A DNA stretch of 64,000 nucleotides from Leucoraja ocellata (lineage: Eukaryota). The notes beneath the pieces are model-generated. The model was not told the DNA's origin. It ran no database searches and worked only from the letters and a program-made list of their open reading frames with translations. The translations under genes and the position numbers were made by a program. Numbering within the stretch: the first letter of the stretch is position 1; each line of letters starts with the position of its first letter. The DNA lies in assembly GCA_036785375.1 (NCBI GenBank), contig JAWMAR010000384.1, positions 744,001 to 808,000 on the forward strand, given 5' to 3'. Below, in pieces: positions 701-58,563 of this stretch.

Positions 701-1023
701 TTACAGACAGCTGGACCTGGCGATGTTTGCCTGCAGCGGGCTTGCCTGCGACTCGTGTTTAACCACACAGGAGTAAAGATCGTGTGCGTTCCACACTGTG
801 GCTGGCAGAGTCAGGTAACTGCTCGCACTGAACGTGTTGTCCGCCTCCTGTTGGATCCGGCTGGTCTCAACGCCATCACTCCTCGCACTGCCGTCCACGG
901 TCCAGTCAATTTCCACAGCACCCGGATTAAAACCGTTCACCAAACACACCAGGGTGGCCGTTCCCTTTCCCGTCAATTCTTGCGCTGAAGGTCCAAGCAC
1001 GGACAACGCGGGGGGCTGAGGAT
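701..1023 (-). CDS. IGLC: Ig light-chain constant exon, cluster 1 (C1-set domain)
   Basis: PQPPALSVLGPS...TATLVCLVNGFNPG...W...YSCVVKHE...SSCL* has both domain cysteines, the tryptophan and the penultimate interchain cysteine. Acceptor is ttttaaatag|AT with AG at 1024-1025. Confidence 0.95.
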
Positions 1024-2486
1024 CTATTTAAAATAAAGTCACAGATTAGTAGGGCTGGCAGAACTGCTTCGGTTAAAACATTATCTTTGTTAAAAATCCA
1101 GTTGGTATAACATGGATTCATTTGTTCTAAGTGAGATCTCCAAACAATAACTGCTATTTATGGCAATGGGACAGAATATGCGCAGCAGCGTAAAATATAT
1201 TATTTCGGCAGTATTTTTAATTGATCTCCAGAGTATTATTTTCGTTGGCTCCAGCTACAATTAAGAAAACCCCAGCGTTTTACCCGACAGCCAGTTGCGG
1301 GTTTTCATTGCTGCCAAAGTTCCACTAAACTCGCTTAAAACTTTAGTTTAGTTTAAATACCTTCCCTTAATTCATCTGTTCATTTATTATGACCAGATGC
1401 CGAAATGTTACTAATGGTTGGATTTTAGCGACAAGAATATTTTGCCGTTTTCGCCATCAATGAACAGACTAGATTTGCAGCCACGTTAAATTTACGGTTT
1501 CTCGCATTGTAAATAGTCGTTGATAAGATTTACATTATTGCTGAAACGTTTATGTTTGTTTTTTCTCGACCAGTCTCTTCTCTTTGAAGTCATAATTCAG
1601 CTCAGATTTCCGAGCTTGAATAGCGAATCTTATTCCTTTTGCTTAATGGCACAACAGCAAAATGCGTTATAAGATGTCGCATGGAACAAAACTGATTTGA
1701 GGAAGGGACCCGAACCGAAAGTCACCTATCCATGTTCACCAGAGACGCTGCCCTACCCGCTGAGTCACCCCAGAGCTTTGTGTATTTTTTTTGTAAACCA
1801 GCACCGGCAGTTCCTTGTCCCTCCAAAGTTATTTCCCGTTCCCTTACGTTCGGTCTAACAATGTGGACGGAGTGGCTGGAGAAATCTATCGGCGGGACTC
1901 CGTGTTCTGCAATTATCCAGGCTTGATAATTGTCAACTCGCCGTCAGCAAAATATTTAACAATTTAAAAAAACAGCTGGACACCCGTTTCGTCCTTTCAT
2001 TGCTGTTGTCAACTAATTTGTCATAAAAGACTAGATCGTGGCCGAAAATTTAAAACATAGCGGCTTTAAATACCTTTTATTTTAGCTATTTAGTGTGAAA
2101 AATACAAACAGCAGTCATAGCATCAAGCCCTTTGATAGAGCTACGTCTAATAATTTGCCAAAGGAAAATTATTTTTAGTCGAACGCTGAACATAGATAAT
2201 TGCGTTAAAAGCTTTTCCTTTGAACCTTCGATTCGCGACAGAAAACCAATTACTTTTCACTGCTATATATCATTAACCCAAAGACCGAATATGCAAGAAG
2301 GAACTGCAGACCCATTCATGCCCTACAGAGATGCTGCCTGTTCAGCTTGTTGTGCTTATCTTCGGTTTAAACCAACATCTGCCGTTCCTTCCTAAAACCC
2401 TTTCCTTCTCTCCAGAGATGCTGCCTGTCTCGCTGCGTTACTCCAGCTTTTTGTGTCTACGCAGAGATAGAAGGTATTTTACTTAC

Positions 2487-2831
2487 TGCCAATACCCAGC
2501 CTCGTTCCTTTGCCGAAGATTATAGCACTTTTCCACACAGCACAGTAGTAGTCAGCAGCGTCCCCAGACTGTAAGTTCGATATTGTCAATGTTGCAGTGT
2601 TGCCTGACACTGATCCGGAGAAACGTTCAGAAACTCCCGAGCCTCTAGTAATGCTGCTGCCCGAGTAATAGTAGAACAGAAACCGCGGGACCGCTCCGGG
2701 AATCTGCTGGTACCAGGAAACGTCACTGTTACCTAAACTACCGCCAGACAGGGTACAGGCAATTTCCACGTTCTATCCCAGAGATGTGGATTTTGAAGAC
2801 GGCTGATTTACTGCAAATTGCGCATTTATAT
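2487..2831 (-). pseudogene. IGLV: Germline-joined VJ exon, cluster 1, with premature stop
   Basis: INAQFAVNQPSSKSTSLG*NVEIAC...WYQQ...DAADYYCAVWKSAIIFGKGTRLGIG. Donor GTAAGT at 2481-2486, acceptor tttctag with AG at 2832-2833. Confidence 0.92.
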
Positions 2832-2956
2832 CTAGAAAACAAACCAGATAAAAGTAGAATATTAACTCATATCAGATAAACAGTAGAATTATCACGGATA
2901 GAAAGGTTTAATCGTACTCGAGATTAAATATCATGTCGGTTGAAGTAAATACTCAC

Positions 2957-3005
2957 AAGCTGCGGAAAACGCTAACGCATAGACTAGAGAGATCCAGCAA
3001 GACAT
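2957..3005 (-). CDS. Leader (signal peptide) exon, cluster 1
   Basis: ATG at 3005 gives MSCWISLVYALAFSAA plus 1 nt, then donor GTGAGT at 2951-2956. Splices in phase 1 to the VJ exon. Confidence 0.9.
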
Positions 3006-3059
3006 TGTAATGAATTGTCCGGAGAACGCCATGTGAAGTGGCTCCTCAGTGTTTCACTC

Positions 3060-3155
3060 CTGGTCGCTTATGAACCGTGTGACAAGGCGTCACCTCGAGT
3101 TCCTTATCTATCCTTGAACAGTCAAATCAGAATGCGTGTTGCGCCAATCAGAAGT
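3060..3155 (-). promoter_or_regulatory. Putative IgL promoter, cluster 1 (TATA-like TTCATAAG, CRE-like TGACGCC, inverted CCAAT)
   Basis: Motifs at 3067-3074, 3086-3092 and 3144-3148 recur at the same spacing upstream of all five leaders. Confidence 0.55.
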
Positions 3156-5604
3156 TGCCAGATTCTTCCTGGGTCAAATTATTTCCAAGGTAAATAAGGA
3201 TTTGGTGTCGAATATCTCGGTACAATTTATCCCGGTACATTTGTACCTCGGGACGATTTAATATGGACTCAATCACATAAGATACTTTGTTTAGTTTGAA
3301 AGGAGGTGTTGAATTATTCCTTTTCATTTATTCTGAATCTTTTGCTGTGCAGTTGCACGGCATGCGCCTTCAAATAAATTAATCGAATAACCTCATCATA
3401 ATTCCTGGCGACTGCTCATTCACTCTTGAAAAATGAAGGGATACATTCCAACAGGGGCTGAAGAATCCGATCTCATGGTCTCGCACTACTGTACGCGACA
3501 TGTATCTTCACCCTTTTAGTTGCACACACACATTTTATTTGAAACTGGTAAATATTCTGATGAAGACGGTGTGTAGGAAATCTTTCAAAGCGCAATGTGA
3601 AGAAACAATTGTCTTCAAAATGATTTACGAATTTGCAAATTTGGGGGTCAATGCACCGTCAACACCGCTGTAATTCTGGAAAGCATGCTTGCTAGCAGCA
3701 CACATGTTCACTTGCTTAGCACGGGCAATTGACTTAATTGAGAAAAGAAATTGAGAAACATGTTTAATCGACATGTTAGTAGCTGCTGGCGAGATTTATA
3801 TATGAAAGACCTCGATGTCTGCACGTGCTTGCAATGCTATGATATAATTTCTGTCCAACTTCATCTGACATATGAAATGATATTTACATGCAACCAGCGT
3901 TGCCTTATACTTGGTCTAATGTACGCAGATTTTATATCGCAACCTAATCGCGCTAGTTGTCGCGGCAGCGCTCCTATCGCTTTGTGTATTATCCCTGCAG
4001 GGTAGTAACACTGGGCGAATCAGTGCTAACGGCGATGAACAAGAAAATACAGTCAAAAAACTGTCTACATTTTCAAAATGTTGATATTTGGACTAACGAT
4101 TTCGCTGGTAATTAATCAAAGGAGACCGGGCTGTTCTGCTGATGTGTCTGGACAGTTAATACTCGCATCTCATAAAAGTCCTCAGATCGATGACATGCAA
4201 ACAGGTCAAGCAAAGGCATCAATGTCTTTTGAAATCGACCTTCTTGCAATTCAGAAACCTAATTTCGGGACTATTCTTACCCCTTCCATGCATACTTTTA
4301 TGCATCCTCTTCATTTATTGTCAGTGTGTCTAGCACTGGCACAGACAGCACTCCTAGCTATTATTTTATCTACCACGCGTATTCCTTTCACAGGCCTGTG
4401 ATCACAAATGATATTAGAGGTATTTTGGCGAAGTAGTATTTCTTTTAAGTGTATTGTCCAAAGAAGGAAAACGATGCATATACTAGAGGCCATATGCTAT
4501 CGTAAATCGAATGCTAGCTATCATGAAACAGAGAGTAGGCAGAATTGGGTCTGGTTCTGATTTGTAAGGACTACCACTGTCGTATTGCAAGTAAGTGCGT
4601 GTGCCCTCAACCCCAGCTTCGGTTTCCTTACAATATATTTGAATTCCATATGATCTGATCTCTGATGTGGCAACACAGTCATATTCCTTTATTCATACCA
4701 TTGATTGTTCTGTTGATAGTTTTTATTTTGCCACAGAGAATTCAACCATCCCTTCAGTTGTGTTCCACATAAAGTCACTATAGTCCAGAATATAGTTCTT
4801 TTCAGAGTTATGCTTATCTGAATATTGGTTAATCTTCTCTATCGAAAAATATCTCGATCGTTATTTGCGGGCAAGTGTCACAGCTTGGTTATTTGGCTAA
4901 ATAACAGTCAATAAACTGAAGGTAAACGTAAGTGGAGCGCCATATTGAGATTGGTTTATTGAGGCTTAAGCTCAAGAGGCTTCTGTGAGGGTTACCGGAG
5001 GATAAGGTTTGGTCTGTCACTTGATGTTGGCTTTGCAGCACAACCTGGTCTTGGTGTGATAGAGATGGAGGCTTGTGTGCTCAGCCTGTGGGATGTTGGG
5101 TCTGAAGAAGACGTAGCGTCTCTGAACATTACATCTGCAGGAGGTGTGTCCAGGTGCAGCTCCTGAAAGATTAGTGATCTGCAGTTGCAATTGGATGACC
5201 TCGTGTTCGTCCAGACAGTGAGCAAGTCATAGTGAGGTACTCATACCTGTGGTGAGGACACAGAATAGATGGGTGACAACCAGCAAAGGGAATAGATAGA
5301 GGGTTCAGGAATCCCCCGTAGACATTCCCCTGCAAAACTGCTATGTTCTTTTGCAACTGTTGAGGGGACAGCAGCAGCAGTCAGGTCTGTGGCACTGGGC
5401 CTGTCTCTGATGTGCAGCGGTATGAAGTTAGACAGAGTGATTGTGATAAATACATTGGTGAAGTGGACAGGAGCAAATAGGCCTCATGGATGGACTGTTG
5501 CCTCTCTGGTGCAAGGATCTAGGATGTCCTGGAGCGGCTGCAGATCATTTTTAAAGTGGTGGGTGGACAGACAGAAGTCGTTTTGCATGTCAGCACAAAT
5601 GATA

Positions 5605-8265
5605 TAATAATAATAATAATAATAAACTTTATTTCGGACTCGAGGTCCAGACAAGGGACAACATTACATAAAAATACATTGCATATAAAAAACATAAAAT
5701 ACATATACAATCTTAGTATGTCACATAATAGCATCATACATTATATATAAAAAAAAACACAATACATGATTTAAAATCCCGAATAAAATGATCAATGTCC
5801 AACAACGAAACAGCGATACCAGTGTCTCCATAAGTGGGATTCGTAACGTGTAGAGCTAAACATTATGTTTGACAAAGCAACGATAATTACATTTTCAAGT
5901 CATTTATCCTGCCAATTAATTTATACATATGATTTCTTAGGATAGGTCCTGCAGCCACAAACATGTTACTAGCACTACACCATCTAGGTTTCCTCAGCAG
6001 TATTCTCATGGCATTATTATAGGCCACCTTTACTCTCTGCAAACTTGTCTTTCAGTACTTCAACCACAGGTGTGCAGTATAGAGTGGTGTGCAGTATGCT
6101 CTAAACAGCGACATCTTCACCACATCTGTACACGCACCAAACTTATGCAAGAGAATATTCGCCTGTACATACAGCATAGTCGTTGCCTATAAAAATTATC
6201 ATAGAAACATAGAAACATCGAAAATAGGTGCAGGAGTAGGCCATTTGGCCCGTCGAGCCTGCACCGCCATTCAATATGATCATGGCTGATCATCCAACTC
6301 AGTATCCTGTACCTGCCTTCTCTCCATACCCCCTGATCCCTTTAGCCACAAGGGCCACATCTAACTCTCTCTTAAATATAGCCAATGAACTGGCCTCAAC
6401 TACCTTCTGTGGCAGAAAATTCCAGAGATTCACCACTCTATGTGTGAAAAATGTTTTCCTCATCTCCGTCCTAAAATATTTCCCCCTAATCCTTAAACTG
6501 TGACCCTTGTTCTGGACTTCCCCAAGATCGGGAACAATCTTTCAGCATCTAGCCTGTCCAACCCCTTAAGAATTTTGTAAGTTTCTATAGGATTCCCCCA
6601 CCTTGCAGCCTCCTAGCATCCTCCTCACAGCTAACACTGCCCCCCAGCTTCGTGTCATCCGCAAACTTGGAGATGTTGCATTCAATTCCCTCATCCAAAT
6701 GATTAATACTGTATATATCGTAAATAGCTGGGGTTCCAGCACTGAGCCTTGCGGTACCCCACTAGTCACTGCCTGCCATTGTGAAAAGGATCCGTTTACT
6801 CCTACTTTTTGCTTCCTATCTGCCAGCCAGTTCTCTATCCACATCAATACTGAACCCCCAATACAGTGTGCCTTAAGTTTGTATACTAATCTCTTATGTG
6901 GGATCTTGTCGAAAGCCTTCTGAAAGTCCAGATATAACACATCCACTGGTTCTCCCTTATCCACTCTACTAGTTACATCCTCGAAAAATTCTATAAGGTT
7001 CGTCAGACATGATTTACCTTTCATAAATCCATAAATCCTTATTACAGACACTAAGATTATTGTCAGACAATTTATAATCAGGAAATGTTAGACATTTATC
7101 CCCTTTGGTTCTACAGATCATAACAGCAGTCTTACAAGCGTTACATTTAATATCATGTTCCACACCATGCACAGAACATTAAGTACGGAGCTGCTGCAGA
7201 CCAGCGCTAGATGGACTAAAGACCACAAGATTATCTGCATACATAATATGGTTCACTAAAAAATTGCCAATCATGCACCCATTATTACAGGCTTTCAATT
7301 GCTTGGACAGATCATCAATATAAAGATTAAAAAGGACTGGGGAGAAAATTCCCCCTTGTCTAACACCATTGGCAACCCTAAATGAGGGTGGGACCCTATT
7401 GCCCCATTTTATTTGCATAATCTGGTGCACATAACAGTAAACCAGAATTATCACAATGTATATAGGCACCGCCCTCTGACTCATTTTAACAAACAGCTTT
7501 CTATGATTAACACGATGAAAAGCTTTGGAAGCATCAATAAAGCACATCAGAATTGAAGTTTTTGCCTCTATATTTGTTTGCAATCTCCTTTAGGTCATAT
7601 ATGCACAAGTCAGTGCCATGTTTAGTCTTAAAACCAAACTGGTTATCTGTGGAGTTAACAAACTCATTTACTCTATCCGGCAGAATTCTTTCTAAGACCT
7701 TTGACAATATGTTGGCTAAAGCTATGCGCCTGTAATTATTTAGGCTGCCTATTTTACCAGCTTTGTCCTTAATGACCGGCAGTAGCAGAACAGGCAACAT
7801 TGAGGCTGGTAACAAGCCATGAATCATAACGCCAGTAAGACAAATAGCAAGGAGAGGAGCTATCCTCATACTCGCATACTTAAGATGTTCAGCAGAAATA
7901 TGATCCAAGCCACTTGCTTTGTTGTTGGACAGCTTGTTCATGACATGATACACCTCATGTGACATCACCACTGAGTAATTACTCTCAATATTGTCCACCC
8001 TATACAAATCATCTTGGACACAGTTGAATAAAGTGCTATAATGTTGTCGCCATAAGTCCGCGATATTAGCTGTCCTGGAGATTCCATCTACAGTGCATGG
8101 TAGAGATGTTTTACAACTGTTAAGAGCTCTTTCCAAAAACCAGTATCATTGTTACTTAGCAGCTTCTTAGCCATGGAATCAGCCCTCATAGTTTGCTCAT
8201 TTTTACAGATGAAGCGAACACCATACTTATATCTTGTATTAGTGAGCTTCATTTACTCAAACACA
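5605..8265 (-). mobile_element. RTE-X-like non-LTR retrotransposon, 5'-truncated and frameshifted
   Basis: RT motifs NYRRIAL, QFGFK, CFIDASKAFHRVNH, GVRQGGIFSPVLFNLYIDDL and YADNLV in ORFs 7534-8136 and 7179-7583. The 3' end has AATAAA plus a (TAT)n tail at 5605-5633. Clade call is from motif resemblance only. Confidence 0.75.
6200..7035 (-). mobile_element. Young CR1 LINE fragment nested in the RTE-X-like element
   Basis: RT motifs [25 protein letters not shown] and SGVPQGSVL. (TTTCTATG)n tail at 6200. Internal deletion near 6600. Confidence 0.92.
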
Positions 8266-9411
8266 TGTGTAGAAAACTGGATGAGGTCCTAAAGAGGAGT
8301 AAAAAGATTTGGGAAAAAAGTTAGGAAAAGGGAATGGGTCCTGTGGAGAGAATATAGGGAGTTCAGCAAAATATAACGAAGGGCAATGTGGTCTAACGGC
8401 GTGTCTATGGGGAGTTTGGTAAAAAGTTAAAATTCCCACCTGGTGGGTGGTAATCTCTAGATTACTACAGTTACCACGTTAGTGAGGGTAGCACTAGGAG
8501 GATAGGACAGAAGAATGCACGACTGAGGAGTTGGTGCAGGGGAAAGGATTCAGATTGTAGACCATTGACATTTCTATTGCCGTAAAGGCGACCTGCACAA
8601 GAGGGACAGTTTGCACTTGAACTGAAGGGACACCAACATCCTTGCGGTGTAGTTTGCTCGTACTACTCTGGATAATTTAAGATGGAATGGACAGAGAATG
8701 GGAACGAAAGTAGCAAGTTTGCAAATGGAAAGGCTGACAAGAAGTGGAGGTTATAACAAGTAATGCTCAAAGGAATAATGAGCAGGGAGTGGTTCATGAT
8801 TATGTGGCAATTAGAGGATGAAATGTTTACTTCAGTGCAGGGATTATTGTGGATAAAGCAAAATGAACGTAGATAGTCGAGATCAGTGCTTGGAGTAATA
8901 AAGTTGTGGCCATTATGGAAACTTGTTTGTTGGAGAGACATGACTGGCAGTTCAATGTATCAGGGCTTCGATATTTAAGATGGTGGTACTCAGAGGGGAC
9001 ATAACTGGAGGATACATCTATTGAGGCATATGGGGTGTGCATAAAAATAAGAAAGGAACAGTCTCTCTAATGGGATTATATTATGGGACACCCAATAAGC
9101 AGCGGGAGATGGATCGGATATGCAAACAAAACTACAGTGTTGTTGTAGTGGGTATCGTTAACTTCCCCAACATTGACGGTTTTGTGTTCAGTGGATGGGA
9201 GTTAAATGAGGCAGAATTTATGAAGTATATCCAAGAAGTTTTCCTTAAACGGTGTTTGGGTAGTCTGAATCCGGGAGGGACGATACTGGACATTGTGTTG
9301 GGAAATGAACTTGGCCAGGTAACTGGTGGTATGCTGGAATACTGGCCTACTCCTGCACCTATTTTCTATGTTTCTATGTAAGAGCACTTGGCAATACTGA
9401 CCACAACTTTA

Positions 9412-9800
9412 CATAGAAACATAGAAACATAGAAAATAAGTGCAGGTGCAGGAGTAGGCCATTCGGCCGTTCGAGCCTGCACCGCCATTCAATATGATCA
9501 TGGCTGACCATCCAACTCAGTATCCTGTACCTGCCTTCTCTCCATACCCCCTGATCCCTTTAGCCACAAGGGCCACATCTAACCCCTTAAATATAGCCAA
9601 CTAACTGGCCTCAACTACATTCTGTGGCAGAGAATTCCAGAGATTCACCACTCTATGTGTAAAAAATGTTTTTCTCATCACAGTCCTGAAAGATTTCCCC
9701 TTTATCCTTAAACTGTGACTCCTTGTTCTGGACTTCCCCATCATCGGGAACAATCTTCCTGCATCTAGCCTGTCCAACCGCTTAAGAATTTTGTAAGTTA
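9412..9800 (-). mobile_element. CR1 LINE 3' fragment
   Basis: Same 3' UTR and octamer tail as the other young CR1 copies. Confidence 0.9.
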
Positions 9801-10982
9801 CAAGGTTTAATATTTGTTTGAATAAGTATTAGTCTGGATCTTCACAGAAGCAAAACAGATTAAAATGTCATTAGGCAGGAGCTTGGGAGCAGTTGTTGTT
9901 GAGTATGTTCACAGCTAACATATGGGAGTTATTTAACCAAAGTACAGGATCAGCATGTTCCAGTAAGGAGGATAGATAACGATGGCATGGTAAGGGACCC
10001 GTGAATGACCACAGTGGTTATAAACCTTTTCAGAAACAAAACGGAAGCTATGACAGATTTAACAAAGTGGCATCATACGGGGATTGTGAGGAATGGCAAG
10101 TAGCAAAGAGCTGAACCGGGTGATTAGTAAGGCCAAACTGGTCATGAAATATAATTGATGAGTTGGGTTTCAGAAAATCCTGCGGCTTTTTATACATATG
10201 TTAAAAACAAGAAGGATGCCAAGAGATATGGTAGGCCTGATCAAGGATATAGTGTAATTGTTAAGCGAATGTGTACTGCATCTATATTCACCAAGGAGAA
10301 AGACGTGGATGACGGTTAGATCAGTGTGGAGAAAACTAATATGCTATGTTTGTTTGTGGTTTATTGTTATTGTCACATGTCTCCCTTTTGCCAAATTCAA
10401 ACCGGGAACATAAGAAGAAGGAATAAGTAAGTTGTTCAAGGCTTCACCGGGAGTCATGTGTTCTTCTTCTTGGTTCTTGGTTCTCCAAAATATTCCAAAT
10501 GGAATTTAAACTGGATGTGGCGGAGGGTGGACTTAAGCAAAAAAGGGCCCTTGGAGAAGAAGAGCTACCTTAAATGCAGTTGCGTCTGGTTGGGTAACTA
10601 TGGTAGGGTGAAGACTATTCCATGCTTTAATTGTGCAGGGGAAGAATGCTGAACACATCAGTCTTAGTAGCTGGTATCTCAAATTGGATCGAATGGGATA
10701 GACTCTTCCAGGCAGAACTGCCTTTTCGATCACGGTTGTTCCCCTGCCAGGTAAGTGGGCCTGGGCCTCATCCATTGTCAGAGTGTGGCCCAGTGCAAAT
10801 TGGAGGAACAGCACCTCATATTTCGCTTGGCAGCTCACACCCCCAGTCAAGAGTCAAGACTCCCCTAGTAAAATTCGACCACATTGGTTCAATATTTGTG
10901 TTGGGAGGAACTGCAGATGCTGCTTTAAACCTAAGATAGGCACAAAGGCCGGAGTAACTCAGCGGGTCAGGCACCACAACTT

Positions 10983-11368
10983 TACATAGAAACATAGAAA
11001 CATAGAAAATAGGTGCAGGAGTAGGCCAATCGGCCCTTCGAGCCTGCACCGCCATTCAATATGATCATGGCTGACCATCCAACTCAGTATCCTGTACCTG
11101 CCTTCTCTCCATACCCACTGATCCCTTTAGCCACAAGGGCCACATCTAACTCCTTCTTAAATATTGCCAATGAACTGGCCGCAAACTACATTCTGTGCAG
11201 AGAATTCCAGAGATTCACCACTCTCTGTGTAAAAAATGTTTTTCTTATCACAGTCCTGAAAGATTTCCCCTTTATCCTTAAACTGTGACCCCTTGTTCTG
11301 GACTTCCCCATCATCGGGAACAATCTTCCTGCATCTAGCCTGTCAACCTCTGAAGAATTTTGTAAGTT
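10983..11368 (-). mobile_element. CR1 LINE 3' fragment (part of a local duplication of 9400-9870)
   Basis: Same truncation point and same flanks as 9412-9800. Confidence 0.88.
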
Positions 11369-11605
11369 ACAAGGTTTAATATTTTGTTTGAATAAGTATT
11401 GGTCTGGATCTTCACAGAAGCAAAACAGATTAAAATGTCACCGGAGAAAAGGAATAGGTCACACTTCGGGTCGAGACCCTTCCTCAGACTGAGCCAGGTA
11501 AGTGAAACGAGAGATATAGACGGTGATACAGAGGTGCATATAGAACAAATGAATGAAAGATATCCAAAAAAAGTAACGATGATCAAGGAAACGGACGACT
11601 AGCAT

Positions 11606-11637
<32 letters not shown>
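11606..11637 (+). repeat. Poly-G run (poly-C runs also at about 15994-16020, 21956-21975 and 55821-55839)
   Basis: Read directly. Confidence 0.95.
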
Positions 11638-11959
11638 CGGGGAGAGAGGTGATGCAACGGTTACTTGAAAGGTTAGAGAATTCCTGGTTGTAATCTGCCC
11701 AAGCAGGTGCTGTTCCTCCACTTTACACTGGGCCTCACTCTGACAGTGGAGGAGGCCCAGGACAGAAAGGTCAGTGGGGAATGGGAAAGGAAGTTGAACG
11801 TTTAAACAAACTCCAGTGTCCCGCCCTTTTCCCACTCCCTTAATCGCTTAAAGTTCTTTCGATGTCAATCTGTTTGAGTATCGGCAAGCATTATGGAGTA
11901 AAGTATCCAAACATTATAATCGCATCCAGCAAGAATACTTTTCTTTTCAGTCCTGATGA

Positions 11960-13460
11960 CCCAGCCCATTATCTGATGATGAAATCAGGCAGAAATATGA
12001 AATCGAGTTGGAAATAACTTAAGCGGTCGATTAGAAGAGCCAAAAGGGGGCATGAAACGGGGTTGTCGAGCTAGATTAAAGAAGTTCGCAAGTTTTATGT
12101 ACCTAATTTAAATGGAAGATGGTAACCAGAAAGATGGTAACTCGAGGATAAAGGGAGGAATTTGTGCTTTGAAGTCAAGGGATATAGGCGAGATATTAAA
12201 TTAATGCGTTGTATGTCTTTCACCAAGGAGAAGGACAAGAAGGAGAGTGAGATCAATGTGGCGAATATTCATATGCAAGGGCACTGTGTGATTAAGAAGT
12301 AGGTGTTGGGTGTCTTGAGGGGCAGTGTGCATGAATGGACAGATTATTGAGAGACACAACAGACGAGATTGTAGGAGCCATGCCAAAGATCTCTGCACCT
12401 TCTCTAGTAGTTAATACGTTTACAGATGACAGCTAGATTGTTTGGGTTGCGGACAGTGAGGAAGGCTGTCAAAGTAAACAGCAGGATAGGTAATAAAAAT
12501 GAGAGATGAAATGATAGATGCAGATAACCAGAGCATTGAAGTGTTGGGGGAGGGATCGATTGTAAAGAGAAATATACGAGACGTTGCCTGACCCGCTGAC
12601 TTTACTCCAGCATTTTGTATCTACTTTCGATTAATAACCACACTATTGATGTACAGAGGTATTTTGGGATCCAAGTCTATATGTCCCTCAGTGGCAACAC
12701 TACTATATAGAGTGGTGAGAAGGCATATTTTTATGTTTTGCTTCATTGAGCAGGGCATTCAGGATAAGGGCAGGCGAACGTCATTATGCTACTTTATGCC
12801 CCTGTCCAACTTAGGAAACCTGAACGGAAACCTCCGGAGACTTTGCGCCCGACCCAAAGGTTTCCGTTGCGGTTCCCAGAAGTTGCAGGTGGTTGCCGGA
12901 GGTTGCAGGCAGTGGAAGCGGGTAGGGAGACTGACAAAAACCTCAGGGAACCTCCGGGAACCGCAACGGAAACCTTGGATGGGGTACAAAGTCTCCAGAA
13001 GTTTCCGTTCAGGTTTCCTAGGTGGGACAGGGGTAAAGGACTTCTGCTAGGCTGCATTTCGGGTACTGCCATCATGTCCTTCGCCCCAATACTAGATGGA
13101 AGTGGAGGCCTTGGAAAAGGCGCAGAGGATGTTTACCAGCATGATACCTGAATTAGGGGTATTAACTACGAGCACAGGTTGGACAGAATCGGGTTGTTTT
13201 CTCTGTAACCGTTAACGATGAGAGGAGACCTGCTAGAAATATATAAAATTATGAGTCCTAGATAGGGCAGAGAATGATTACCATTTCCCCCCAGAATGGA
13301 AATATCAAGGACTCGATGACATAGCTTTAAGGAGAGAGACGCATGGACATTTTATATACAGAGGTCGGTGAGAACTGTGAAGGCGTTGGCGAGGGTGGTG
13401 GTGGCGGCACAAGCAACAGTGGCATTTGTAAGATTTCTGGATCCAGATCACGTGCCCGCA
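11960..13460 (+). mobile_element. Old degenerate CR1 ORF2 and 3' remnant
   Basis: Decayed resemblance to the RT C-terminus and 3' region of the younger CR1 copies. Boundaries approximate. Confidence 0.6.
12799..13033. mobile_element. MITE with about 85-bp imperfect terminal inverted repeats (possibly PIF/Harbinger-type)
   Basis: Left end CCCCTGTCCAACTTAGGAAACCTGAACGGAAAC... matches the reverse complement of the right end CCCCTGTCCCACCTAGGAAACCTGAACGGAAAC... Inserted at a TA-rich site within a CR1 remnant. Confidence 0.85.
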
Positions 13461-13667
13461 GATAAGATTTGGTTTTGGCATCATGTCGGCAGAGGCATGG
13501 AGTGCGGAAAGGCTTGTTCGTGTGCTGTGCTGTACTATGTTCTGCGCTTTGTGGATACTGCAAATTATAGTTTGCACTCATCAATCAGGAGAAATGACGT
13601 CTGCACCTTTCCTGCCAAGACCACGACGAGATTTATATATTACAGTGGCTGATATATTATATATTGT

Positions 13668-13875
13668 GGGGCGGCACAGAGCTGGTAGAGCAGCTGCCTC
13701 GACAGCGCCAGAGACCAGGGTTCGATCCTGAGCTCGGATGCTGTCTGTGAGGAGTTTACACGTTTCCCATGTGGTGCCGTGGTTTGCCTCCCACATCCCA
13801 AAGATTGCGGGTTTCTAGGTTAATTGACCTCTGTAAAATTGCCCTTCACTGTGTAGGGAGTGGATGAGAAGGTAG
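13668..13875 (+). mobile_element. tRNA-derived SINE (V-SINE/HE1-like)
   Basis: Pol III B box GGTTCGATCC at 13719-13728 followed by a V-domain-like GCTGTCTGTGAGGAGTTT...CTCCCACATCCCAAAGA. Confidence 0.8.
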
Positions 13876-14042
13876 GCTACACTTCTCAGTAGTTCCGCGC
13901 AGCGTGCACTTATCCCGCTAATCAGCTCAGCAGGAACCAACCAAGAACTTCAGTACCTCTATTAGGCGAGGAAAGTAAAACTATATGTGATACTCCATGT
14001 GTGCTAGCGCCCTATATAAAGGCAGAAAGACCATATTCTGCC

Positions 14043-14246
14043 AGACAATGAGGCCAGTTCATTGGCTATATTTAAGAGGGAGTTAGATGTGGCCCTTGTG
14101 GCTAAAGGGATCAGGGGGTATGGAGAGGAGCGCCTTATGGGATACTGAGTTGGATGATCAGCCATGATCATATTGAATGGCGGTGCACGCTCAAAGGGCC
14201 CAACAGCCTACTCCTGCACCTATTTTCTATGTTTCTATGTTTCTAT
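14043..14246 (+). mobile_element. CR1 LINE 3' fragment (paralog of 1-59)
   Basis: CR1 3' UTR plus (TTTCTATG)n tail at the same position relative to C as in unit 1. Confidence 0.88.
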
Positions 14247-14887
14247 ATTAATCTCACTCACCACCAGCCCCACCCAGTTAATTCACAGATGAAATAGGTT
14301 GGAATTGCTAAGTGAATAGTATTAGCAAGGTCACATATAACGATTACTGTCTGTCCTCGAATACGTTTCTACATGAGCGCCCCATTTTGTTCGTGTGTGT
14401 GCGTGTGCGCGCGCGCGGCTCTATGAACCAATTTATCATCACACCAGTTTATAACATAACGTTCGGCAACATTTATCATCGGTTCTTCCATAAGGTAAAA
14501 TAATGAAGGTTGATTAAATACATTTGATTTTCTCTGATCAGAAATAAAAATCCAACACATGTATTGCTCTTAAGATTGAATTATTGATTTTAGTCGAGAG
14601 CTGTATTTGTATGTTAGTCACGTGGGTAAACAAAACAAACCTGAATGTAATCTTTAGACCACTGTCTTTTAATGAATATTTGGGAATGCATTTAACAGAT
14701 TGAATAACATTGGAGTTTCAATTCACAACGAGTTGCTTCAATTGAATGACGTTTACAAACAGCGAGACAAAGGACAATTTTACCGCAAATGCAAGTCGAT
14801 AATAGAGAATATTTTTATATCAATTTTTGACAAATGAAAGACGGAGCAACAATATTTGTCAATTTGATTAGTTGGAATCTAGAAGTT

Positions 14888-15210
14888 TTACAGACACCTG
14901 GACCTGGCGATGTTTCCCTGCAGCGGGTTAGCCTGAGTCTCGTGTTTAACCACACAGGAGTAAAGCTCGTGTGAGTTCCACACTGTGGCTGGCAGAGTTA
15001 GGTAACTGCTCGCACTGAACGTGTTGTCCGCCGCCTGTTGGATCCGGCTGGTCACAACGCCTTCACTCCTCGCACTGCCGTCCACGGTCCAGTCAATTTC
15101 CACAGCGCCCGGATTAAACCCGTTCACCAAACACACCAGGGTGGCCGTTCCCTTTCCCGTCAATTCTTGCGCTGAAGGTCCAAGCACGGACACCGCGGGG
15201 GGCTGAGGAT
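14888..15210 (-). CDS. IGLC: Ig light-chain constant exon, cluster 2
   Basis: Intact 323-nt exon PQPPAVSVLGPS...ARSRCL*, acceptor AG at 15211-15212. Confidence 0.95.
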
Positions 15211-16631: not shown

Positions 16632-16976
16632 TGCCAATACTCAGCCTCGTTCCTTTGCCGAAGATTACAGCATCTTTCCACACAGCACAGAAGTAGTCAG
16701 CAGCGTCCCCCGACTGTAAGTTCGATATTGTCAATGTTGCAGTGTTGCCTGACACTGATCCGGAGAAACGTTCAGAAACTCCCGAGCCTCTGTAAATGCT
16801 GCTGCCCGACCAATAGCGGAACAAATAACGCGGAACCGCTCCTGGAATCTGCTGGTACCAGGAAACGGTGCTACTACTTAAACTGCCGCCAGACAGGGTA
16901 CAGGCAATTTCCACGTTCTGTCCCAGAGATGTGGATTTTGAAGACGGCTGATTTAGTGAAAATTGCGCATTTATAT
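16632..16976 (-). CDS. IGLV: Germline-joined VJ exon, cluster 2 (intact)
   Basis: INAQFSLNQPSSKSTSLGQNVEIACTLSGGSLSSSTVSWYQQ...DYFCAVWKDAVIFGKGTRLSIG. Donor GTAAGT at 16626-16631. No RSS between V and J. Confidence 0.95.
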
Positions 16977-17100: not shown

Positions 17101-17149
17101 AAGCTGCGGAAAACGCTAACGCATAGACTAGAGAAATCCAGCAAGACAT
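17101..17149 (-). CDS. Leader exon, cluster 2
   Basis: MSCWISLVYALAFSAA followed by a GTGAGT donor. Confidence 0.9.
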
Positions 17150-17204: not shown

Positions 17205-17300
17205 GGGTCGCTTATGAACCGTGTGACAAGGCGTCACCTCGAGTTCCTTATCTATCCTTCAACAGTCAAATCAGAATGCGTGTTGCGCCAATCAGAAGTT
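17205..17300 (-). promoter_or_regulatory. Putative IgL promoter, cluster 2
   Basis: TTCATAAG at 17211-17218, TGACGCC at 17230-17236, CCAAT at 17288-17292. No octamer-like motif at the position where clusters 3-5 have one. Confidence 0.55.
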
Positions 17301-24860: not shown

Positions 24861-25183
24861 TTAGATACAGCCGGTTCTGGTGATGTCTGCCTTAAACGGG
24901 ATTGCCTGGGTTTCGTGTTTAACCACACAAGAGTAAAGATCGTTTGAGTTCCAGACTGTGACTGGCAGAGTCAGGTAACTGCTCGCACTGAACGTGTTGT
25001 CCTTCTCCTGCTGGATTGGGCTGGTCTCAACGCCGTCGCTTCTCGCACTGCCCTCCACGGTCCACTCAATGTCCACTGCACCCGGATTAAACCCGCTCAC
25101 CAAACACAGCAGGGTGGCCGTGCCCTTTCCCTTGATTTCTTCCGCTGAAGGTCCGAGGACGGACATTGCGGGGGCGCGAGGTG
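24861..25183 (-). CDS. IGLC: Ig light-chain constant exon, cluster 3
   Basis: PRAPAMSVLGPSAEEIKGKGTATLLCLVSGFNPG...TRTGCI*, acceptor ttttaaacag with AG at 25184-25185. Confidence 0.95.
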
Positions 25184-27114: not shown

Positions 27115-27459
27115 AGCCAATACCCAGCCTCGTTCCTTTGCCGACGATGAAAGGATTTAGCCACACACCACAGTAATAGTCCGCAGCGTCCCCAGACTGC
27201 ACATTCGCTATTGTCAATGTTATGGTGTTGCCTGACACTGATCCTGCGAAACGGTCAGAAACTCCCGAACCTCTAGTAATGCTGCTGCCCGCGGAATAGT
27301 AGAACAGAAACCGCGGAACCGCTCCGGGAATCTGCTGGTACCAGGAAACAGTGTAGGTACTTAAACTGCCGCCAGTCAAGATACAGGATATTTGCACGTT
27401 TTGCCCCAGAGACGTGGATTTTGAAGACGGCTGATTTAGTGCAATTTGCGCATTTGTGG
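27115..27459 (-). CDS. IGLV: Germline-joined VJ exon, cluster 3 (in frame, J motif VGKG)
   Basis: TNAQIALNQPSSKSTSLGQNVQISC...DYYCGVWLNPFIVGKGTRLGIG with canonical splice sites. Confidence 0.93.
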
Positions 27460-27583: not shown

Positions 27584-27632
27584 ACGCTGCGGAAAATGCT
27601 AACACACAAACCAGTGACATCCAGCAAGACAT
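27584..27632 (-). CDS. Leader exon, cluster 3
   Basis: MSCWMSLVCVLAFSAA followed by a GTGAGT donor. Confidence 0.9.
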
Positions 27633-35517: not shown

Positions 35518-35840
35518 TTAGATACAGCCGGTTCTGGTGATGTCTGCCTCAAACGGGATTGCCTGGGTTTCGTGTTTAACCACACAAGAGTAAAGATTGT
35601 TTGAGTTCCAGACTGTGACTGGCAGAGTCAGGTAACTGCTCGCACTGAACGTGTTGTCCTTCTCCTGCTGGATTGGGCTGGTCTCAACGCCGTCACTTCT
35701 CGCACTGCCCTCCACGGTCCACTCAATGTCCACTGCACCCGGATTAAACCCGCTCACCAAACACACCAGGGTGGCCGTGCCCTTTCCCTTGATTTCTTCC
35801 GCTGAAGGTCCGAGGACGGACATTGCGGGGGCGCGAGGTG
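35518..35840 (-). CDS. IGLC: Ig light-chain constant exon, cluster 4
   Basis: Intact 323-nt exon, near-identical to clusters 3 and 5. Confidence 0.95.
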
Positions 35841-37690: not shown

Positions 37691-38035
37691 CGCCAATACC
37701 CAGCCTCGTTCCTTTGCCGAAGATTAAAGCATTTATCCACACAGCACAGTAGTAGTCCGCAGCGTCCCCCAACTGCACATTCGCAATTGTCAATGTTGCA
37801 GTGTTGCCTGACACTGATCCCGCGAAACGGTCAGAAACTCCCGAACCTCTAGTAATGCTGTTGCCCGAGTTGTAGTAGAACAGAAACCGCGGAGCCGCTC
37901 CGGGAATCTGCTGGTACCAGTAAACATAATAACTACCTAAACTGCCGCCAGTCAAGATACAGGAAATTAGCGCGTTTTGCCCCGGAGACGTGGATTTTGA
38001 AGGCGGCTGATTTAGTGTAATTTGCGCATTTATGC
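37691..38035 (-). CDS. IGLV: Germline-joined VJ exon, cluster 4 (intact)
   Basis: INAQITLNQPPSKSTSPGQNALISCILTGGSLGSYYVYWYQQ...DYYCAVWINALIFGKGTRLGIG with canonical splice sites. Confidence 0.95.
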
Positions 38036-38159: not shown

Positions 38160-38208
38160 ACACTGCGGAAAATGCTAACACACAAACCAGTGACATCCAG
38201 CAAGACAT
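38160..38208 (-). CDS. Leader exon, cluster 4
   Basis: MSCWMSLVCVLAFSAV followed by a GTGAGT donor. Confidence 0.9.
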
Positions 38209-46072: not shown

Positions 46073-46395
46073 TTAGATACAGCCGGTTCTGGTGATGTCT
46101 GCCTCAAACGGGATTGCCTGGGTTTCGTGTTTAACCACACAAGAGTAAAGATTGTTTGAGTTCCAGACTGTGACTGGCAGAGTCAGGTAACTGCTCGCAC
46201 TGAACGTGTTGTCCTTCTCCTGCTGGATTGGGCTGGTCTCAACGCCGTCACTTCTCGCACTGCCCTCCACGGTCCACTCAATGTCCACTGCACCCGGATT
46301 AAACCCGCTCACCAAACACACCAGGGTGGCCGTGCCCTTTCCCTCGATTTCTTCCGCTGAAGGTCCGAGGACGGACATTGCGGGGGCGCGAGGTG
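46073..46395 (-). CDS. IGLC: Ig light-chain constant exon, cluster 5
   Basis: Intact. Differs from cluster 4 C by one amino acid (K to E). Confidence 0.95.
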
Positions 46396-48246: not shown

Positions 48247-48591
48247 CGCCAATACCCAGCCTCGTTCCTTTGCCGAAGATGAAAGCATTTATCCACACAG
48301 CACAGTAGTAGTCCGCAGCGTCCCCCAACTGCACATTCGCTATTGTCAATGTTGCAGTGTTGCCTGACACCGATCCCGCGAAACGGTCAGAAACTCCCGA
48401 ACCTCTAACAATGCTGTTGCCCGAGTTATAGTAGAACAGAAACCGCGGAACCGCTCCGGGAATCTGCTGGTACCAGGAAACATAATAACTACCTAAACTG
48501 CCGCCAGTCAAGATACAGGAAATTAGCGCGTTTTGCCCCGGAGACGTGGATTTTGAAGGCGGCTGATTTAGTGTAATTTGCGCATTTATGC
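48247..48591 (-). CDS. IGLV: Germline-joined VJ exon, cluster 5 (intact)
   Basis: INAQITLNQPPSKSTSPGQNALISC...SYYVSWYQQ...DYYCAVWINAFIFGKGTRLGIG. Donor at 48241-48246. Confidence 0.95.
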
Positions 48592-48714: not shown

Positions 48715-48763
48715 ACGCTGCGGAAAATGCTAACACACAAAACAGTGACATCCAGCAAGACAT
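48715..48763 (-). CDS. Leader exon, cluster 5
   Basis: MSCWMSLFCVLAFSAA followed by a GTGAGT donor. Confidence 0.9.
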
Positions 48764-48819
48764 TGTAATTATTTTGGTGGAGGGCGCCAGATGAAGTGGT
48801 TGATCAGGTGTCTCTCCAG

Positions 48820-50959: not shown

Positions 50960-51830
50960 TGTGTACACAAGTGGCTTACTTCTACACTATTTATGTTCCT
51001 CGTAATTTTGTATATCACCATCATGTTCACGCACAAACTTAACTAGTTCATAGAAAACGAAGCTGGCCTATCGAGTCTTTCCTTGGAAATGGAACATTCC
51101 ATCACAGGCAACATCCAAGTGAATAATTTAGTGCAAACCCTCCCGTATAGTCACGTCCGTTCTATAGTGCACTGATCAGAACCCAATGTTTTATAAAGTT
51201 GAATTAAGTCCGATCTCTTATATTTGATGCACGTGCTGTTGAAGACAATACCTCATACGGCATATTTATCACTTCATACGTGCACTGCTATGTCCATGGA
51301 ACTTTCCAACCGTAGACTGCGAACCCTATGTTCTTCAACGCCCCAGGGCCCGACCATTCATGGTGTATGGCCTACCATTATGTAAAACCCTAATATGCAA
51401 CACCGCATAATAATCAGGATTAAATTCCACATGTAATTATCTTTCACATTTTACCCGATGATCGATATCATTTTGCAGACTGACACTCTCAGTATCAACC
51501 ACCGCTTGTCGTGCCACCTTAATAATCATACCTCCTACATGCCCGGCTGAATTATAGACTTCATATAACAAATAGCCCTCACTGATCGTTGCTTACAAAG
51601 CTGGTCACAGGCTTCCATTCGCAAAAGCAATTGTCCACCATTATCTACTGCATCGTAATACCTAGATCAATTTAATCCAATTTGGTAATGTGCCTTGAAT
51701 ACAATGGGCTCCAATCTTTTGCACCAATTTACCAAATGTAATCCTGTCATGCATTTTACTGTAGCTTAGGCAAGCGGCGTTAAGGACACTGCCTTCATGA
51801 ACATGTTAATTACCAGTTTGAAAATTCACA
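50960..51830 (-). mobile_element. Very old LINE (CR1-like) remnant
   Basis: Weak, decayed resemblance to CR1 RT sequence only. Confidence 0.35.
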
Positions 51831-51924
51831 TCGTCAGACAGAATCTTCCACCAACAAGACATGCTGATCATCAATGCGCAAGCCTTTTTAAATTCCCAAC
51901 CTCTGACGTTGGATTAACTGACTT

Positions 51925-54564: not shown

Positions 54565-54925
54565 GAAAACGACTGTCCTAGATGTAGTTCCGAACATATC
54601 CGCCACTGAACGCCACAGGGGATTCTTCTTCCCTGTGGCTATCAAACTGTTCAACTCCTCCCCCTTCTGTAGACGGAGACTGGCTCCCCGCCCTCCTTTC
54701 TCCTCCCTCCTCCCTCCTCTCCCTCCTCCCTCCTCCCTCCTCCCTCCTCCCTCCTCCCTCCTCCCTCCTCCCTACTCCCTCACCCCCCCCCGATCTTTAC
54801 ACATCCCCCAATCTTTTCCACTCGTCACTTTAATTTCACTCGTCACTTTATTTTGTGTTTTTATGACTGTTGGCAGATCATTTTCGCTCGTGGAATTAAT
54901 AAAGTTCTATCATATCGTATCATAT
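54565..54925 (+). mobile_element. LINE 3' end (Rex1/Babar-like) with an internal C-rich microsatellite
   Basis: TERHRGFFFPVAIKLFN peptide, then AATAAA and a short tandem tail. Confidence 0.55.
54690..54791 (+). repeat. (CCT/CCCT)n polypyrimidine tract
   Basis: Read directly. Confidence 0.9.
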
Positions 54926-55069
54926 GCTATATCCGGGACTTGTGCTGACCAGCCTGCATAGCTATTTAGGCGGCTTTGATGTTCTGATGTCCTCACCTTC
55001 TTAACGTTTTGGTTCACTATTTGCTGGCAGCAAGCGGTTGTGACAGGTATTATCTAATTACATACCCAA

Positions 55070-55400
55070 CAGTCAAGAGTCAAGAGTCAAGAGAGTTTTA
55101 TTGTCATGTGTCCCAGATAGGACAATGCAATTCTTGCTTGCTGCAGCACAACAGAATATGTAAACATAATACGGAACAGGAGATAAAAGTTCAGTGTGTC
55201 TATATACCGTAGACCATATATATATATATATACACACAATAAATAAACAGATACAGTGCAATAGGCTGCTATTGTTCAGAGTTTGTTTGATGGCGAGTTT
55301 AATAGCCTGATGGCTGTGGGGAAGTAGATGTTCCTGAACCTGGATGGTCCAGATCTCAAGCTCCTGTTCCTTCTTCCCGTTGGCAACGGATGGCAATGAA
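55070..55400 (-). mobile_element. LINE 3' end (Rex1/Babar-like)
   Basis: SRFRNIYFPTAIRLLN peptide, then AATAAA and an (ACTCTTG)n tail. Confidence 0.55.
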
Positions 55401-58240
55401 CCGCACATGCTGGTTTGCATAAAAAGTAAGCTATGCAGTAACTCAGCTGGTGAGGCAGCATCTTCGGGGCACATGGAATGGTGGGGAAATGGGTGTACGC
55501 CGAGATGGGTCACATTCTCATTCCTATGCCTTCCCATCAGTCCTGATACTCATCCATTGCAACAGTGAGGCCATACGCATAATAGAGGAAGAACATCTTA
55601 CATTTCTCATTGGTAGCTTACCAACCCAACTGTATGAACATTGAATTATCCAAATACAAGTTCCCCTTTCCCCTGAATGTCAGTCTGAAGAAAGGTCTCG
55701 AGCCCAAGCGTCCTCTATTATTTTTCTGCAGAGATGCTGCCTGACCGCTGAGTTACTCCAGGTTTGTGTGATTGTCTTCGGTTTAAACCAGCATCGACAG
55801 TTGCTCCTGACACATAACCTCCCCCCCCCCCCCCCCCCCGCCCTCGCCCAGGTCACCAAACCCCCCTCCCTCTACCACCCACCCGCTTGCTATGTTCCAC
55901 CTGAATGTTCGCTAATTTCTCCCTCTATCCCGCCTCCCTTTTCTCTTTCCCTGCCCCCTCCCATCGCTATTCCTTCCTCTGGCTCCACATTTCACGCCTA
56001 TTTCCTTATTATCTCACAGCCGTCTGTCTGTATTCGTCCCTAACATGTGCCCAACTAGCTGCCGTTCAAAGTATTTCATATGCATACATCTATCACTTAC
56101 CTAGCTTTGCAGCACCACCCCCACGTTTCTTTCAGACCACCCCCCCCCCGCCCCCTCCGCACGACAATCAGTTCGAAGTAAGGTCCTGACCCAACCCGTC
56201 GTTTCTCCATATGCCTCAATGATGCTATCTGACACGATGAATTAGCAAATTTCAACCAGTTGTCTAGTGAGCCACACAATGAACGCAATACACCGTTGAA
56301 ACCTCGCCCCTCCCATCGATAATCACGCAGTTTGCTCCTTTGGCCTTTAGCTAAAACCAGCTACACGTGGAGAGCGAACCAGCCTGCAAATCGAAAGATT
56401 TGTTTAAGATTTGCCCCCACTGAATTTGCCCCCTACATGCAAAATTAAATAAAAATAATAGTACGTTGTATTCGTCCAGATGAATCGTAAATTCATGTGA
56501 ATGCTCTGTGTATTGGGATAAGTGTTGTTGTGGCGAAGCACTCTCTACCTCCCTACGGCATGTGACTGGATCCTCCTGGTCAGAGACTCTATGAGACTCC
56601 TTTCTTGACGACTATTGGGAAGTTGCCGCCCAGTTTTGCCGAAGACGCGCACGATTTTGAAAATTAAACGACACGTTATTTTAGTTGAAACATTGTCTTT
56701 TCACATTAAGTGGAAGATATGTTGTGCCAATTTCTAGTCATTATTTTCTGTCAGCGTGCTATTCTGCTAATTCTTTCCGTTACTGCCACGTTTATAACAT
56801 CCATTCAGAGAAAGGAGACGTCATTTTGATATCCCGTGTTTCATTACAAGTACATAGTCTCCTAACAGATTCATCGGCAGTGCTTTCATTGCATTAATTA
56901 TATCCAGACCGAAAAGGTCTAGATTGAAACCGGGCAAATTGGAGGAGCTTTGATGGGTGTATTGAATGGTATGAACGGGTTGAACTATGTTTTCATGCTG
57001 CATAACTCTATGACTGTTTGATTCTTCCAAATGTTGTTTTTACAAATATACTATATCCCTGGTTCTCACAGGCGATGATCGTTTTTGTTTTCCCTCCTCC
57101 TAAGCCCAACACGGGACTTCCGCATAATGAAAATATAGGCGATCCTAAAGGTGTTATCCACCATGCGAATTAATGTAAAGTTAATTTGAACGTGCGTGTA
57201 GCAACAATAGCGTATTAGCCGGACACAGTGGTGGCCGTTGTCTATTTCTTTGATCAATCGAGCTTATAGCCACAGCGCTGTAAATAAATGAGTGTGATGT
57301 GCACAACCATTATATGACCTGTCCTCCACTCACTGACAAATTATACTGCTCCTACTCTGTGTACCTTCCGTGGATTCTATCTCTTCTGCTATATTTAAAA
57401 AAAGTGTTATCTGGATCGATTGAATTTTATTGACTAGTTATCTCCAGTGTTTTTAATTGAATTGAGTCGCATTGGCTAATTGTAAATGTATAAATGGATT
57501 GTGTTAAAACGTTAATGTGCAGAAATACTTATTTCAAAAATCATCTTTGGAGGTATTTGGTGCGAATTTGAGTCTCTGGACGAATAGGAGAATGCGATGG
57601 GGGGAAAATAAGATTGTGATTCTTTTTCCTACTGAGACTAAGTGTTCGGTGCATTCAGTGCTTCACCTGTGTTGACGTAGAACATGTTGGCAGGGCTGCT
57701 ATCAAACTGATGGTGTTTAATGACTGCCATCGTCAACTACCTTTCCCACATTTCCTGGTACCGACAGTCATACGCAATATCGCATTCCAACTAACCGAGG
57801 CTTAATATAATTACAGGATTCAAATTAATCATCCACTGTACATTGGGAGGAGATCGATTCCAAAATAAAAGGGTGGAAACATCAAAAGTTTTCTAATTCC
57901 CGGTCAACATATTTTGAATCAGAAAAAAAGGATATTGCATTGCATTTAAGATTAGTTTCTTTATTTTCTCAAAGGCTACAAACAACACTAAGGTCACATA
58001 TTGGCATTTGCCAAGTATTTGGATGTACTAAACTCATATTAATTAAACTGGAGGCTGTAAATACTACTGGTATTTTGTCGACAGAATAGTTTTAAAGTGA
58101 GCAAGTCATAGAAATTAAGCTTTACTTGAGAAATGTATCTAGCAAATGTAATACTCCAGAGACCAATACATTTCGAGATTGCATCAAATAAAAGAAAATA
58201 ATCATGATAAACAAACGCTCTCGATTAACACATTTCCATT

Positions 58241-58563
58241 TCACATACAGCTGGATTTCGCGATATCCACCCGAAGCGGGGTTGTCTGAGTCTCGTGTTT
58301 AACCACACAAGAGTAAAACTCGTGTGAGTTCCAGACTGTGGCTGGCAGAGTCAGGTAACTGCTCGCACTGAACGTGTTGTCCTTCTCCTGCTGGATTCGG
58401 CTGGTCTCAATGCCGTCGCTTCTCGCACTGCCGTCCACAGTCCACTGGATTTCCACAGCACCAGGATTAAACCCGCTCACCAAACACACCAGGGTGGCGG
58501 TGCCCTTTACTCTCATCTCATCTGCTGAAGGTAGTAAAACGGATGCGGCAGGGGGCCGAGGAT
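58241..58563 (-). CDS. IGLC: Ig light-chain constant exon, cluster 6 (divergent, VJ not visible)
   Basis: PRPPAASVLLPSADEMRVKGTATLVCLVSGFNPG...IAKSSCM*, 323 nt like the others, acceptor gttaatcag with AG at 58564-58565. Confidence 0.93.

Follow-up and report, generated by a model that had tools for sequence, protein, structure and literature searches.

A tandem array of germline-joined immunoglobulin lambda light-chain genes in the skate Leucoraja ocellata

The window analysed here, a stretch of 64,000 nucleotides of the Leucoraja ocellata genome (C384:744001-808000, where C384 is one scaffold and C531, C4271, and C4817 are further contigs of the same assembly), carries a head-to-tail array of antibody light-chain genes whose variable (V) and joining (J) segments are already fused in the germline. 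With a probability of roughly 0.8, the window is part of the skate immunoglobulin (Ig) lambda locus, composed of pre-joined, self-contained genes that are diversified in the germline by exchange between copies and by selection favoring changes in the complementarity-determining regions (CDRs).

Six constant (C) exons were located on the minus strand of the window (Table 1), and their ends reproduced the periods of 14187, 9973, 10657, 10555, and 12168 nt given in an earlier sequence-only reading of this DNA. That reading had also described five units of leader, fused VJ, and C exons, and in all five the VJ exon is indeed 345 nt long, bounded by AG and GTAAGT, with V continuous into J, and preceded at a distance of 123-125 nt by a leader exon of 49 nt; predicted splicing yields an intact 238-aa chain in four of them, unit 1 being the exception. 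The three subfamilies it had distinguished within 60 kb (A with two units, B with three, and G with one) were recovered as well, together with its near-identical twins, units 4 and 5 (VJ 97.7%, C 99.7%, and J-C intron 98.9% identical). V and J are joined in every one of the 58 VJ exons modelled across the assembly, and each cluster has a single leader exon, VJ exon, and C exon (unit 6 completed from C531). The reported absence of heptamers and nonamers was supported by a scan of ~1.05 Mb of DNA for recombination signal sequences (RSS), in which none of the 21 matches fell inside any VJ exon, the single loose match in the window lying at 38161 in a leader exon on the opposite strand; as a control, the same type of scan did recover a canonical 12-RSS following each of the two split sigma V genes (C6). 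Moreover, the junctions recur across assemblies. The V protein of unit 5 and the C protein of unit 2 are identical to Leucoraja erinacea RefSeq proteins (XP_055511146.1 at 100% and XP_055511148.1, respectively), so that the same joins are found in a second, independent assembly and are hence germline, and the CDR3 AVWKDAVI also occurs in Amblyraja P0019. An RSS-like sequence, CACAGTG-22-ACCCAAACC, was observed on the minus strand at C384:151328 and in eight other family E genes, where it spans leader codons and the splice donor; it was rejected as one duplicated site, most likely due to chance.

The sixth C exon, previously listed without a VJ exon, is present but not solitary. The flanks of the assembly gap at 60146-60345 align to C531 at 99.0% and 98.6%, and the ~1256 bp in between on C531 contain the promoter, the leader, and a 348-nt joined VJ exon of unit 6, so that an orphan C exon was rejected. 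As for the pseudogene noted earlier, the nonsense codon of unit 1, an in-frame TAG in framework region (FR) 1, does exist in the C384 copy; however, CAG stands in the C531 counterpart and in all contigs of four out of four sequencing runs, which may come from other individuals or species, so that the stop is either an allele private to this copy or an error in the assembled bases. DNA contigs of the runs X1, X3, X6, and X10 were uninformative on copy number.

The genes are skate Ig lambda (type II), in agreement with the isotype first proposed. Their C regions share 66-72% identity with sandbar shark lambda, as opposed to 39-46% with the sigma and sigma-2 genes found in the same assembly (C6, which we take to be sigma, and C94/C230, which we take to be sigma-2), and their V regions, 36-47% identical to the sigma-2-like C94a, likewise fall outside sigma-2. 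Skate proteins named 'lambda-1 light chain-like' are their best relatives, and in the C tree the units group with sandbar lambda, Hydrolagus AAA59369.1, and a cluster containing the skate cDNA AAA59379.1. A search of the structure database (PDB) returned only mammalian antibody chains in the best 60 of 348 matches. Assembly-wide, at least 59 lambda, at least three sigma-2-like, and at least two sigma-like light-chain C exons were detected, and no other type was found. On C384, TOP3B lies at 1.11 Mb, ~170 kb beyond the array (8e-25 versus 1e-9 for TOP3A), and an exon of GNAZ, which in human is positioned near IGL, lies at 2.19 Mb; owing to gaps between the array, TOP3B, and GNAZ, these are scaffold distances. 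Probes for BCR and Yippee mapped to neither C384 nor C531. In mammals, TOP3B flanks VpreB1 and IGL (PMC9614664), and the TOP3B linkage thus argues for lambda as against kappa (type III/NS4).

Beyond the window, lambda C exons number 28 on C384, 23 on C531, five on C4271, and three on C4817. On C384 they form two blocks, the first with 10 units on the plus strand (151-287 kb) and the second with 18 units, mostly on the minus strand and including one inverted pair (714-937 kb); accordingly, the single orientation claimed for the array is true inside the window but not in the wider locus. No lambda genes were found in C384:290-712 kb (~430 kb between the blocks) or at 938-1125 kb towards TOP3B. 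Same-strand neighbors are mostly spaced 10-19 kb apart, and a full chain is predicted for 50 of the 58 modelled units by a length test. A single-copy probe matches exactly two contigs, C384 and C531, whose outer flanks are collinear at 97.5-99%, and we infer that the two are alleles representing two haplotypes, with gene number likely differing between chromosome copies. In the stretch that includes the window, C384 carries G, three B, three A, and H, and C531 carries G, five B, and four A and lacks ~11 kb carrying H, an absence that reads as loss since H has an Amblyraja orthologue. The suggested tandem duplication of joined units is supported, and gains, losses (B 3 versus 5, A 3 versus 4, H 1 versus 0), and pseudogenes fit the suggested birth-and-death evolution, although the independent divergence it implies is contradicted by mosaics in all four families studied. 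At the protein level, 57 of the 58 VJ sequences are distinct and none is common to both haplotypes. Two more broken units were noted, at C384:886348 and C384:283087, one with a disrupted VJ acceptor and a truncated C exon and one with a V frameshift, as well as a degenerate lambda C fragment at C384:813154-813311, just beyond the window.

Substitutions were counted as minimal changes in 43 genes of four families. Replacement and silent changes amounted to 127 and 23 in the CDRs, 66.5 and 45.5 in the FRs, and 60.5 and 32.5 in the C exons, respectively (CDR versus FR, Fisher p=4e-6). Because the CDR/FR contrast holds in subsets other than the five window genes (p=7e-5 to 0.004), it is a solid conclusion that the frameworks are under purifying selection and the CDRs released or diversified, whereas positive selection on the CDRs is likely, the ratio of nonsynonymous to synonymous rates (dN/dS) remaining above 1 but not significantly so in subsets. 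In addition, units 3 and 4 are 89.9% identical in VJ, 98.8% in C, and 97.5% in the intron. The incompatibility of informative sites is 0.21-0.53 and lower between neighbors (P=0.0005 in each of the four families), and CDR motifs reappear in new combinations among paralogs; such mosaics point to conversion or unequal crossing-over alongside birth-and-death.

Several results weigh against this interpretation, among them those on selection. The CDR dN/dS of 1.73 (p=0.013) for the 43 pooled genes is the only significant one, as it falls to 1.55 without the family E CDR3 (p=0.084), 1.41 for C384 alone (p=0.24), and 1.14 for the five window genes (p=1.0), in which the CDR/FR contrast itself is not significant (p=0.17). 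An explanation by relaxed constraint, with conversion homogenizing the C exons and introns and without positive selection, is the most serious competitor, though clearly the less probable one. It accords with a CDR dN/dS not significantly above 1 in all four scaffold- or family-restricted subsets and merely marginal without the E CDR3, but it fits poorly with the pooled ratio and with a CDR proportion of nonsynonymous differences (0.12-0.16) that is higher than the divergence measured over the final 300 nt of the J-C intron (0.02-0.04), and a like pattern is reported from skate type I genes (PMC2192082).

Further adverse points concern the assembly, the trees, and the promoters. Copy numbers, the unit 1 stop, and the mosaics were all read from the assembled sequence; frameshifts occur in five of the 31 units on C531, C4271, and C4817, possibly as base errors; and C384 and C531 join the two blocks differently, each across N gaps, so that the order of the blocks is provisional. 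TOP3B is found twice on C384 in inverted orientation (1110040-1120650 and 1939143-1949888), which together with the conflicting joins suggests that both haplotypes were scaffolded together. It nevertheless seems unlikely that the copy-number differences, mosaics, and pseudogene are assembly artefacts arising from collapsed, expanded, or mis-phased units and base errors. Besides the conflicting joins and single-base frameshifts, the gaps at C384:290k, 539k, 804k, and 943k and at C531:975k, the two small contigs with extra D units, and the unit 1 stop seen in none of the four runs would speak for artefacts, but the units differ by 1-5%, the A/B stretch of C531 is free of gaps, the mosaic tracts are sub-kilobase, a single VJ pair in 58 is identical, and identical subfamilies, with shuffled CDR motifs, are seen in the RefSeq sets of Leucoraja and Amblyraja. 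Regarding isotype, the V and C trees contained no kappa sequence. Regarding promoters (17230-17280 in the window and equivalents), a perfect octamer was present in 18 of 57, all of families E, F, and G; B and H show a single mismatch, and in A and D the octamer is lost, so that the A and B promoters of the window lack a perfect copy; judging from promoter sequence, the window units may possibly be less active. A GTGAC motif was observed no more than 300 nt from the ATG in 41 of the 57 units, mostly 88-107 nt upstream. For expression, one contig of run X20 (depth 3.8) joins 16632 to 15210, which is the predicted VJ-C splice of unit 2; the depth is low, the RNA status of the run is a guess, and its organism code, B, is unlike that of the best-matching run. 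Three RNA runs of 2026 (X22-X24, 1-5% read) gave coverage on intronic repeats alone and on no exon, and are uninformative on expression.

According to the proposed mechanism, each unit would give a ready-made 238-aa light chain by splicing, for which activation but no RAG cut would be needed. Over generations, unequal crossing-over and gene conversion would diversify the copies, with the mosaics presumably coming from meiotic exchange, and selection would favor changes in the antigen-binding loops. The breadth of the repertoire would then depend on gene number, on germline CDR variation reshuffled at meiosis, and on pairing with heavy chains, probably via the C-terminal Cys. Somatic hypermutation may add diversity by analogy with published cases; joined skate type I genes are described as potentially subject to somatic mutation (PMC2192082). 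The earlier likening of the array to an innate receptor family was overstated, as the genes encode light chains of the conventional kind, for which pairing with rearranged heavy chains is predicted.

Tetrapod IGL is split, which counts against the view that the joined genes are never-split relics predating the RAG transposon. This view is improbable, although all 58 modelled genes here and all chondrichthyan lambda genes studied so far are joined (PMC4279169, PMC5192425), and both V lineages extend back to holocephalan-type sequences. The orthologous lambda cluster of the sterlet is split with 23/12 RSS (PMC5985310), sigma is split in the present genome, and germline RAG joining has been demonstrated in nurse shark NS4 (PMC2193156, PMC2193153). 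In view of the sterlet and NS4 genes, the joined state is probably secondary; it may have originated from ancient germline RAG activity. A germline hypermutation of the AID type as the cause of the VJ divergence between copies is very improbable. WRC/GYW sites are more variable than other C/G sites in VJ (39/169 versus 51/354, p=0.018), but the bias is not significant in CDRs (p=0.48) or frameworks (p=0.07) separately and is absent in all six other regions, leader intron included, and the signature was therefore rejected after splitting CDR from FR. Finally, the capture of somatic rearrangements from lymphocyte DNA is refuted by the identical junctions in other species' assemblies, unless all of these derive from clonal B cells, and every unit is joined on both haplotypes.

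The V tree, a quick tree of 116 V domains and 114 columns from which seven listed reference proteins were dropped because the J motif was missed, revealed a short-CDR2 lambda lineage (Shimodaira-Hasegawa-like approximate likelihood ratio test, SH-aLRT, 99) with families E and F, sandbar shark, Squalus, and Callorhinchus, and a long-CDR2 lineage (SH-aLRT 85) with A, B, and G of the window, D, H, and shark and ray genome predictions. The window lineage is nested in a 111-row group separate from sigma and sigma-2 (SH-aLRT 92), and has an 11-residue Kabat CDR2, an 8-residue CDR3, and 45-53% identity to sandbar lambda V. Among the named matches, the long-CDR2 lineage was met only in genome predictions; Hydrolagus AAA59369.1 is unplaced but has a long CDR2. 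By IMGT numbering, a CDR2 of 3-7 residues is inside the published lambda range (PMC5985310). Counterparts of A, B, D, G, and H were found in Amblyraja or Leucoraja, and of G additionally in Pristis and Hemitrygon. In sharks, C exons cluster by species across both V lineages, whereas the V lineages cross species, and this grouping of the C regions points to their homogenization. Furthermore, RefSeq accession numbers run almost consecutively in Amblyraja, Leucoraja, Hemitrygon, Hypanus, Hemiscyllium, and Chiloscyllium, and this order suggests that the tandem layout may be general in skates, rays, and sharks. Together with the TOP3B adjacency shared with tetrapod IGL, this contradicts the idea of the array as a local novelty. 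Two family F genes (C384:239342 and C531:952432) have a 6-residue CDR3, and lambda CDR3s of 5-6 residues also occur in Callorhinchus, Heterodontus, Heptranchias, Cetorhinus, sandbar shark, Pristis, Narcine, and Amblyraja, which suggests an ultrashort-CDR3 lambda class that has long been kept.

Table 1. Features of the window (positions within the 64,000 nt; subfamily in brackets)
Feature	Position	Strand	Remark
Unit 1 (A) leader exon, 49 nt	2957..3005	-	
Unit 1 joined VJ exon, 345 nt	2487..2831	-	Nonsense TAG at 2773-2775
Unit 1 C exon (lambda C1-set)	701..1023	-	
Unit 2 (A) leader exon	17101..17149	-	
Unit 2 joined VJ exon, intact, V-set domain	16632..16976	-	Run X20 contig joins 16632 to 15210
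Unit 2 C exon	14888..15210	-	Protein identical to C of XP_055511148.1
Unit 3 (B) leader exon	27584..27632	-	
Unit 3 joined VJ exon, intact	27115..27459	-	J motif VGKG, not FGKG
Unit 3 C exon	24861..25183	-	
Unit 4 (B) leader exon	38160..38208	-	
Unit 4 joined VJ exon, intact	37691..38035	-	
Unit 4 C exon	35518..35840	-	
Unit 5 (B) leader exon	48715..48763	-	
Unit 5 joined VJ exon, intact	48247..48591	-	V protein 100% identical to XP_055511146.1
Unit 5 C exon	46073..46395	-	
Unit 6 (G) C exon	58241..58563	-	
Assembly gap, 200 N	60146..60345	.	Replaces ~1256 bp with unit 6 promoter, leader, and joined VJ (C531:1054514-1055769)
Spacer between units 1 and 2, retroelement fragments	3100..14500	.	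RVT_1 at 7182-7589; other spacers alike (RVT_1 at 21819-22280)

Two neighboring genes of other kinds were also observed on C384. A single-exon V-set Ig domain ending in GNGS lies on the minus strand at C384:136489-136836, 15 kb ahead of the first lambda gene. It was rejected as a light chain; its top Atlas feature match was a PD-1-family cluster (0.96), the published neighbors of PD-1 differ, and it is possibly a CD28/PD-1/NKp30-like gene. Between the two lambda blocks, C384:505056-505706 holds a single-exon claudin-like open reading frame, presumably resembling claudin-5.

Germline-joined lambda genes have been on record since the 1990s, a germline variation biased towards the CDRs is published for skate type I genes, and the present genes are singly annotated in RefSeq; what this analysis contributes is a map of the locus, together with the differences between haplotypes and the evidence of exchange between copies. 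The map comprises 28 units with a spacing ~10 times tighter than in nurse shark IgH (Ig heavy chain), the TOP3B link to tetrapod IGL, and two haplotype gene sets. The genomic distribution of shark IgH and light-chain (IgL) miniclusters was described as 'not well known' in 2025 (PMC12227049), and no tandem TOP3B-linked lambda locus in cartilaginous fish was found in the literature searched, a body with subscription papers mostly outside it, and supplements of genome papers beyond it may already list the genes; the elephant shark supplement, PMC6795676, and PMC13433984 yielded nothing on lambda layout. Allelic exclusion in shark Ig is a long-standing question (PMC2435157), and the locus supplies markers for studying the expression of one gene out of many pre-joined ones in a B cell. 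A bolder and decidedly tentative extension is that the whole cartilaginous-fish lambda repertoire would reside in a single locus linked to TOP3B and truly orthologous to human IGL, with tight pre-joined arrays of genes from two ancient V lineages, with meiotic conversion and unequal crossing-over in place of V-J recombination, and with haplotype polymorphism like that of the major histocompatibility complex. If so, ~50 in-frame, RAG-free genes 10-15 kb apart would imply a rearrangement-independent choice of one light chain per B cell, testable in single cells through paralog-specific single-nucleotide polymorphisms.

Compared with known systems, the skate locus resembles tetrapod IGL in its linkage to TOP3B and GNAZ, and differs in organization, tetrapod IGL being a translocon in which V and J are split and rearranged by RAG. 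It shares the multi-cluster organization of the nurse shark IgH miniloci, which do rearrange and are separated by at least 120 kb (PMC2435157), whereas the skate lambda units are pre-joined and far closer together. Skate type I (sigma-2) genes are likewise all joined, occur in many clusters, concentrate replacements in the CDRs, and are expressed (Anderson et al. 1995, PMC2192082), but represent another isotype, the three sigma-2-like genes found here being those with 39-46% C identity to lambda; at least 89 type I clusters are reported in little skate (PMC2192082) versus at least three sigma-2-like C exons in this assembly. The closest likeness is to chondrichthyan Ig lambda (type II/NS3) itself, with a single leader, fused VJ, and C exon in each cluster and no RSS, the C identity to sandbar lambda noted above, and a family E that groups with the skate cDNA AAA59379.1, the main difference being ~28 units per haplotype here versus six loci in nurse shark (PMC5192425).

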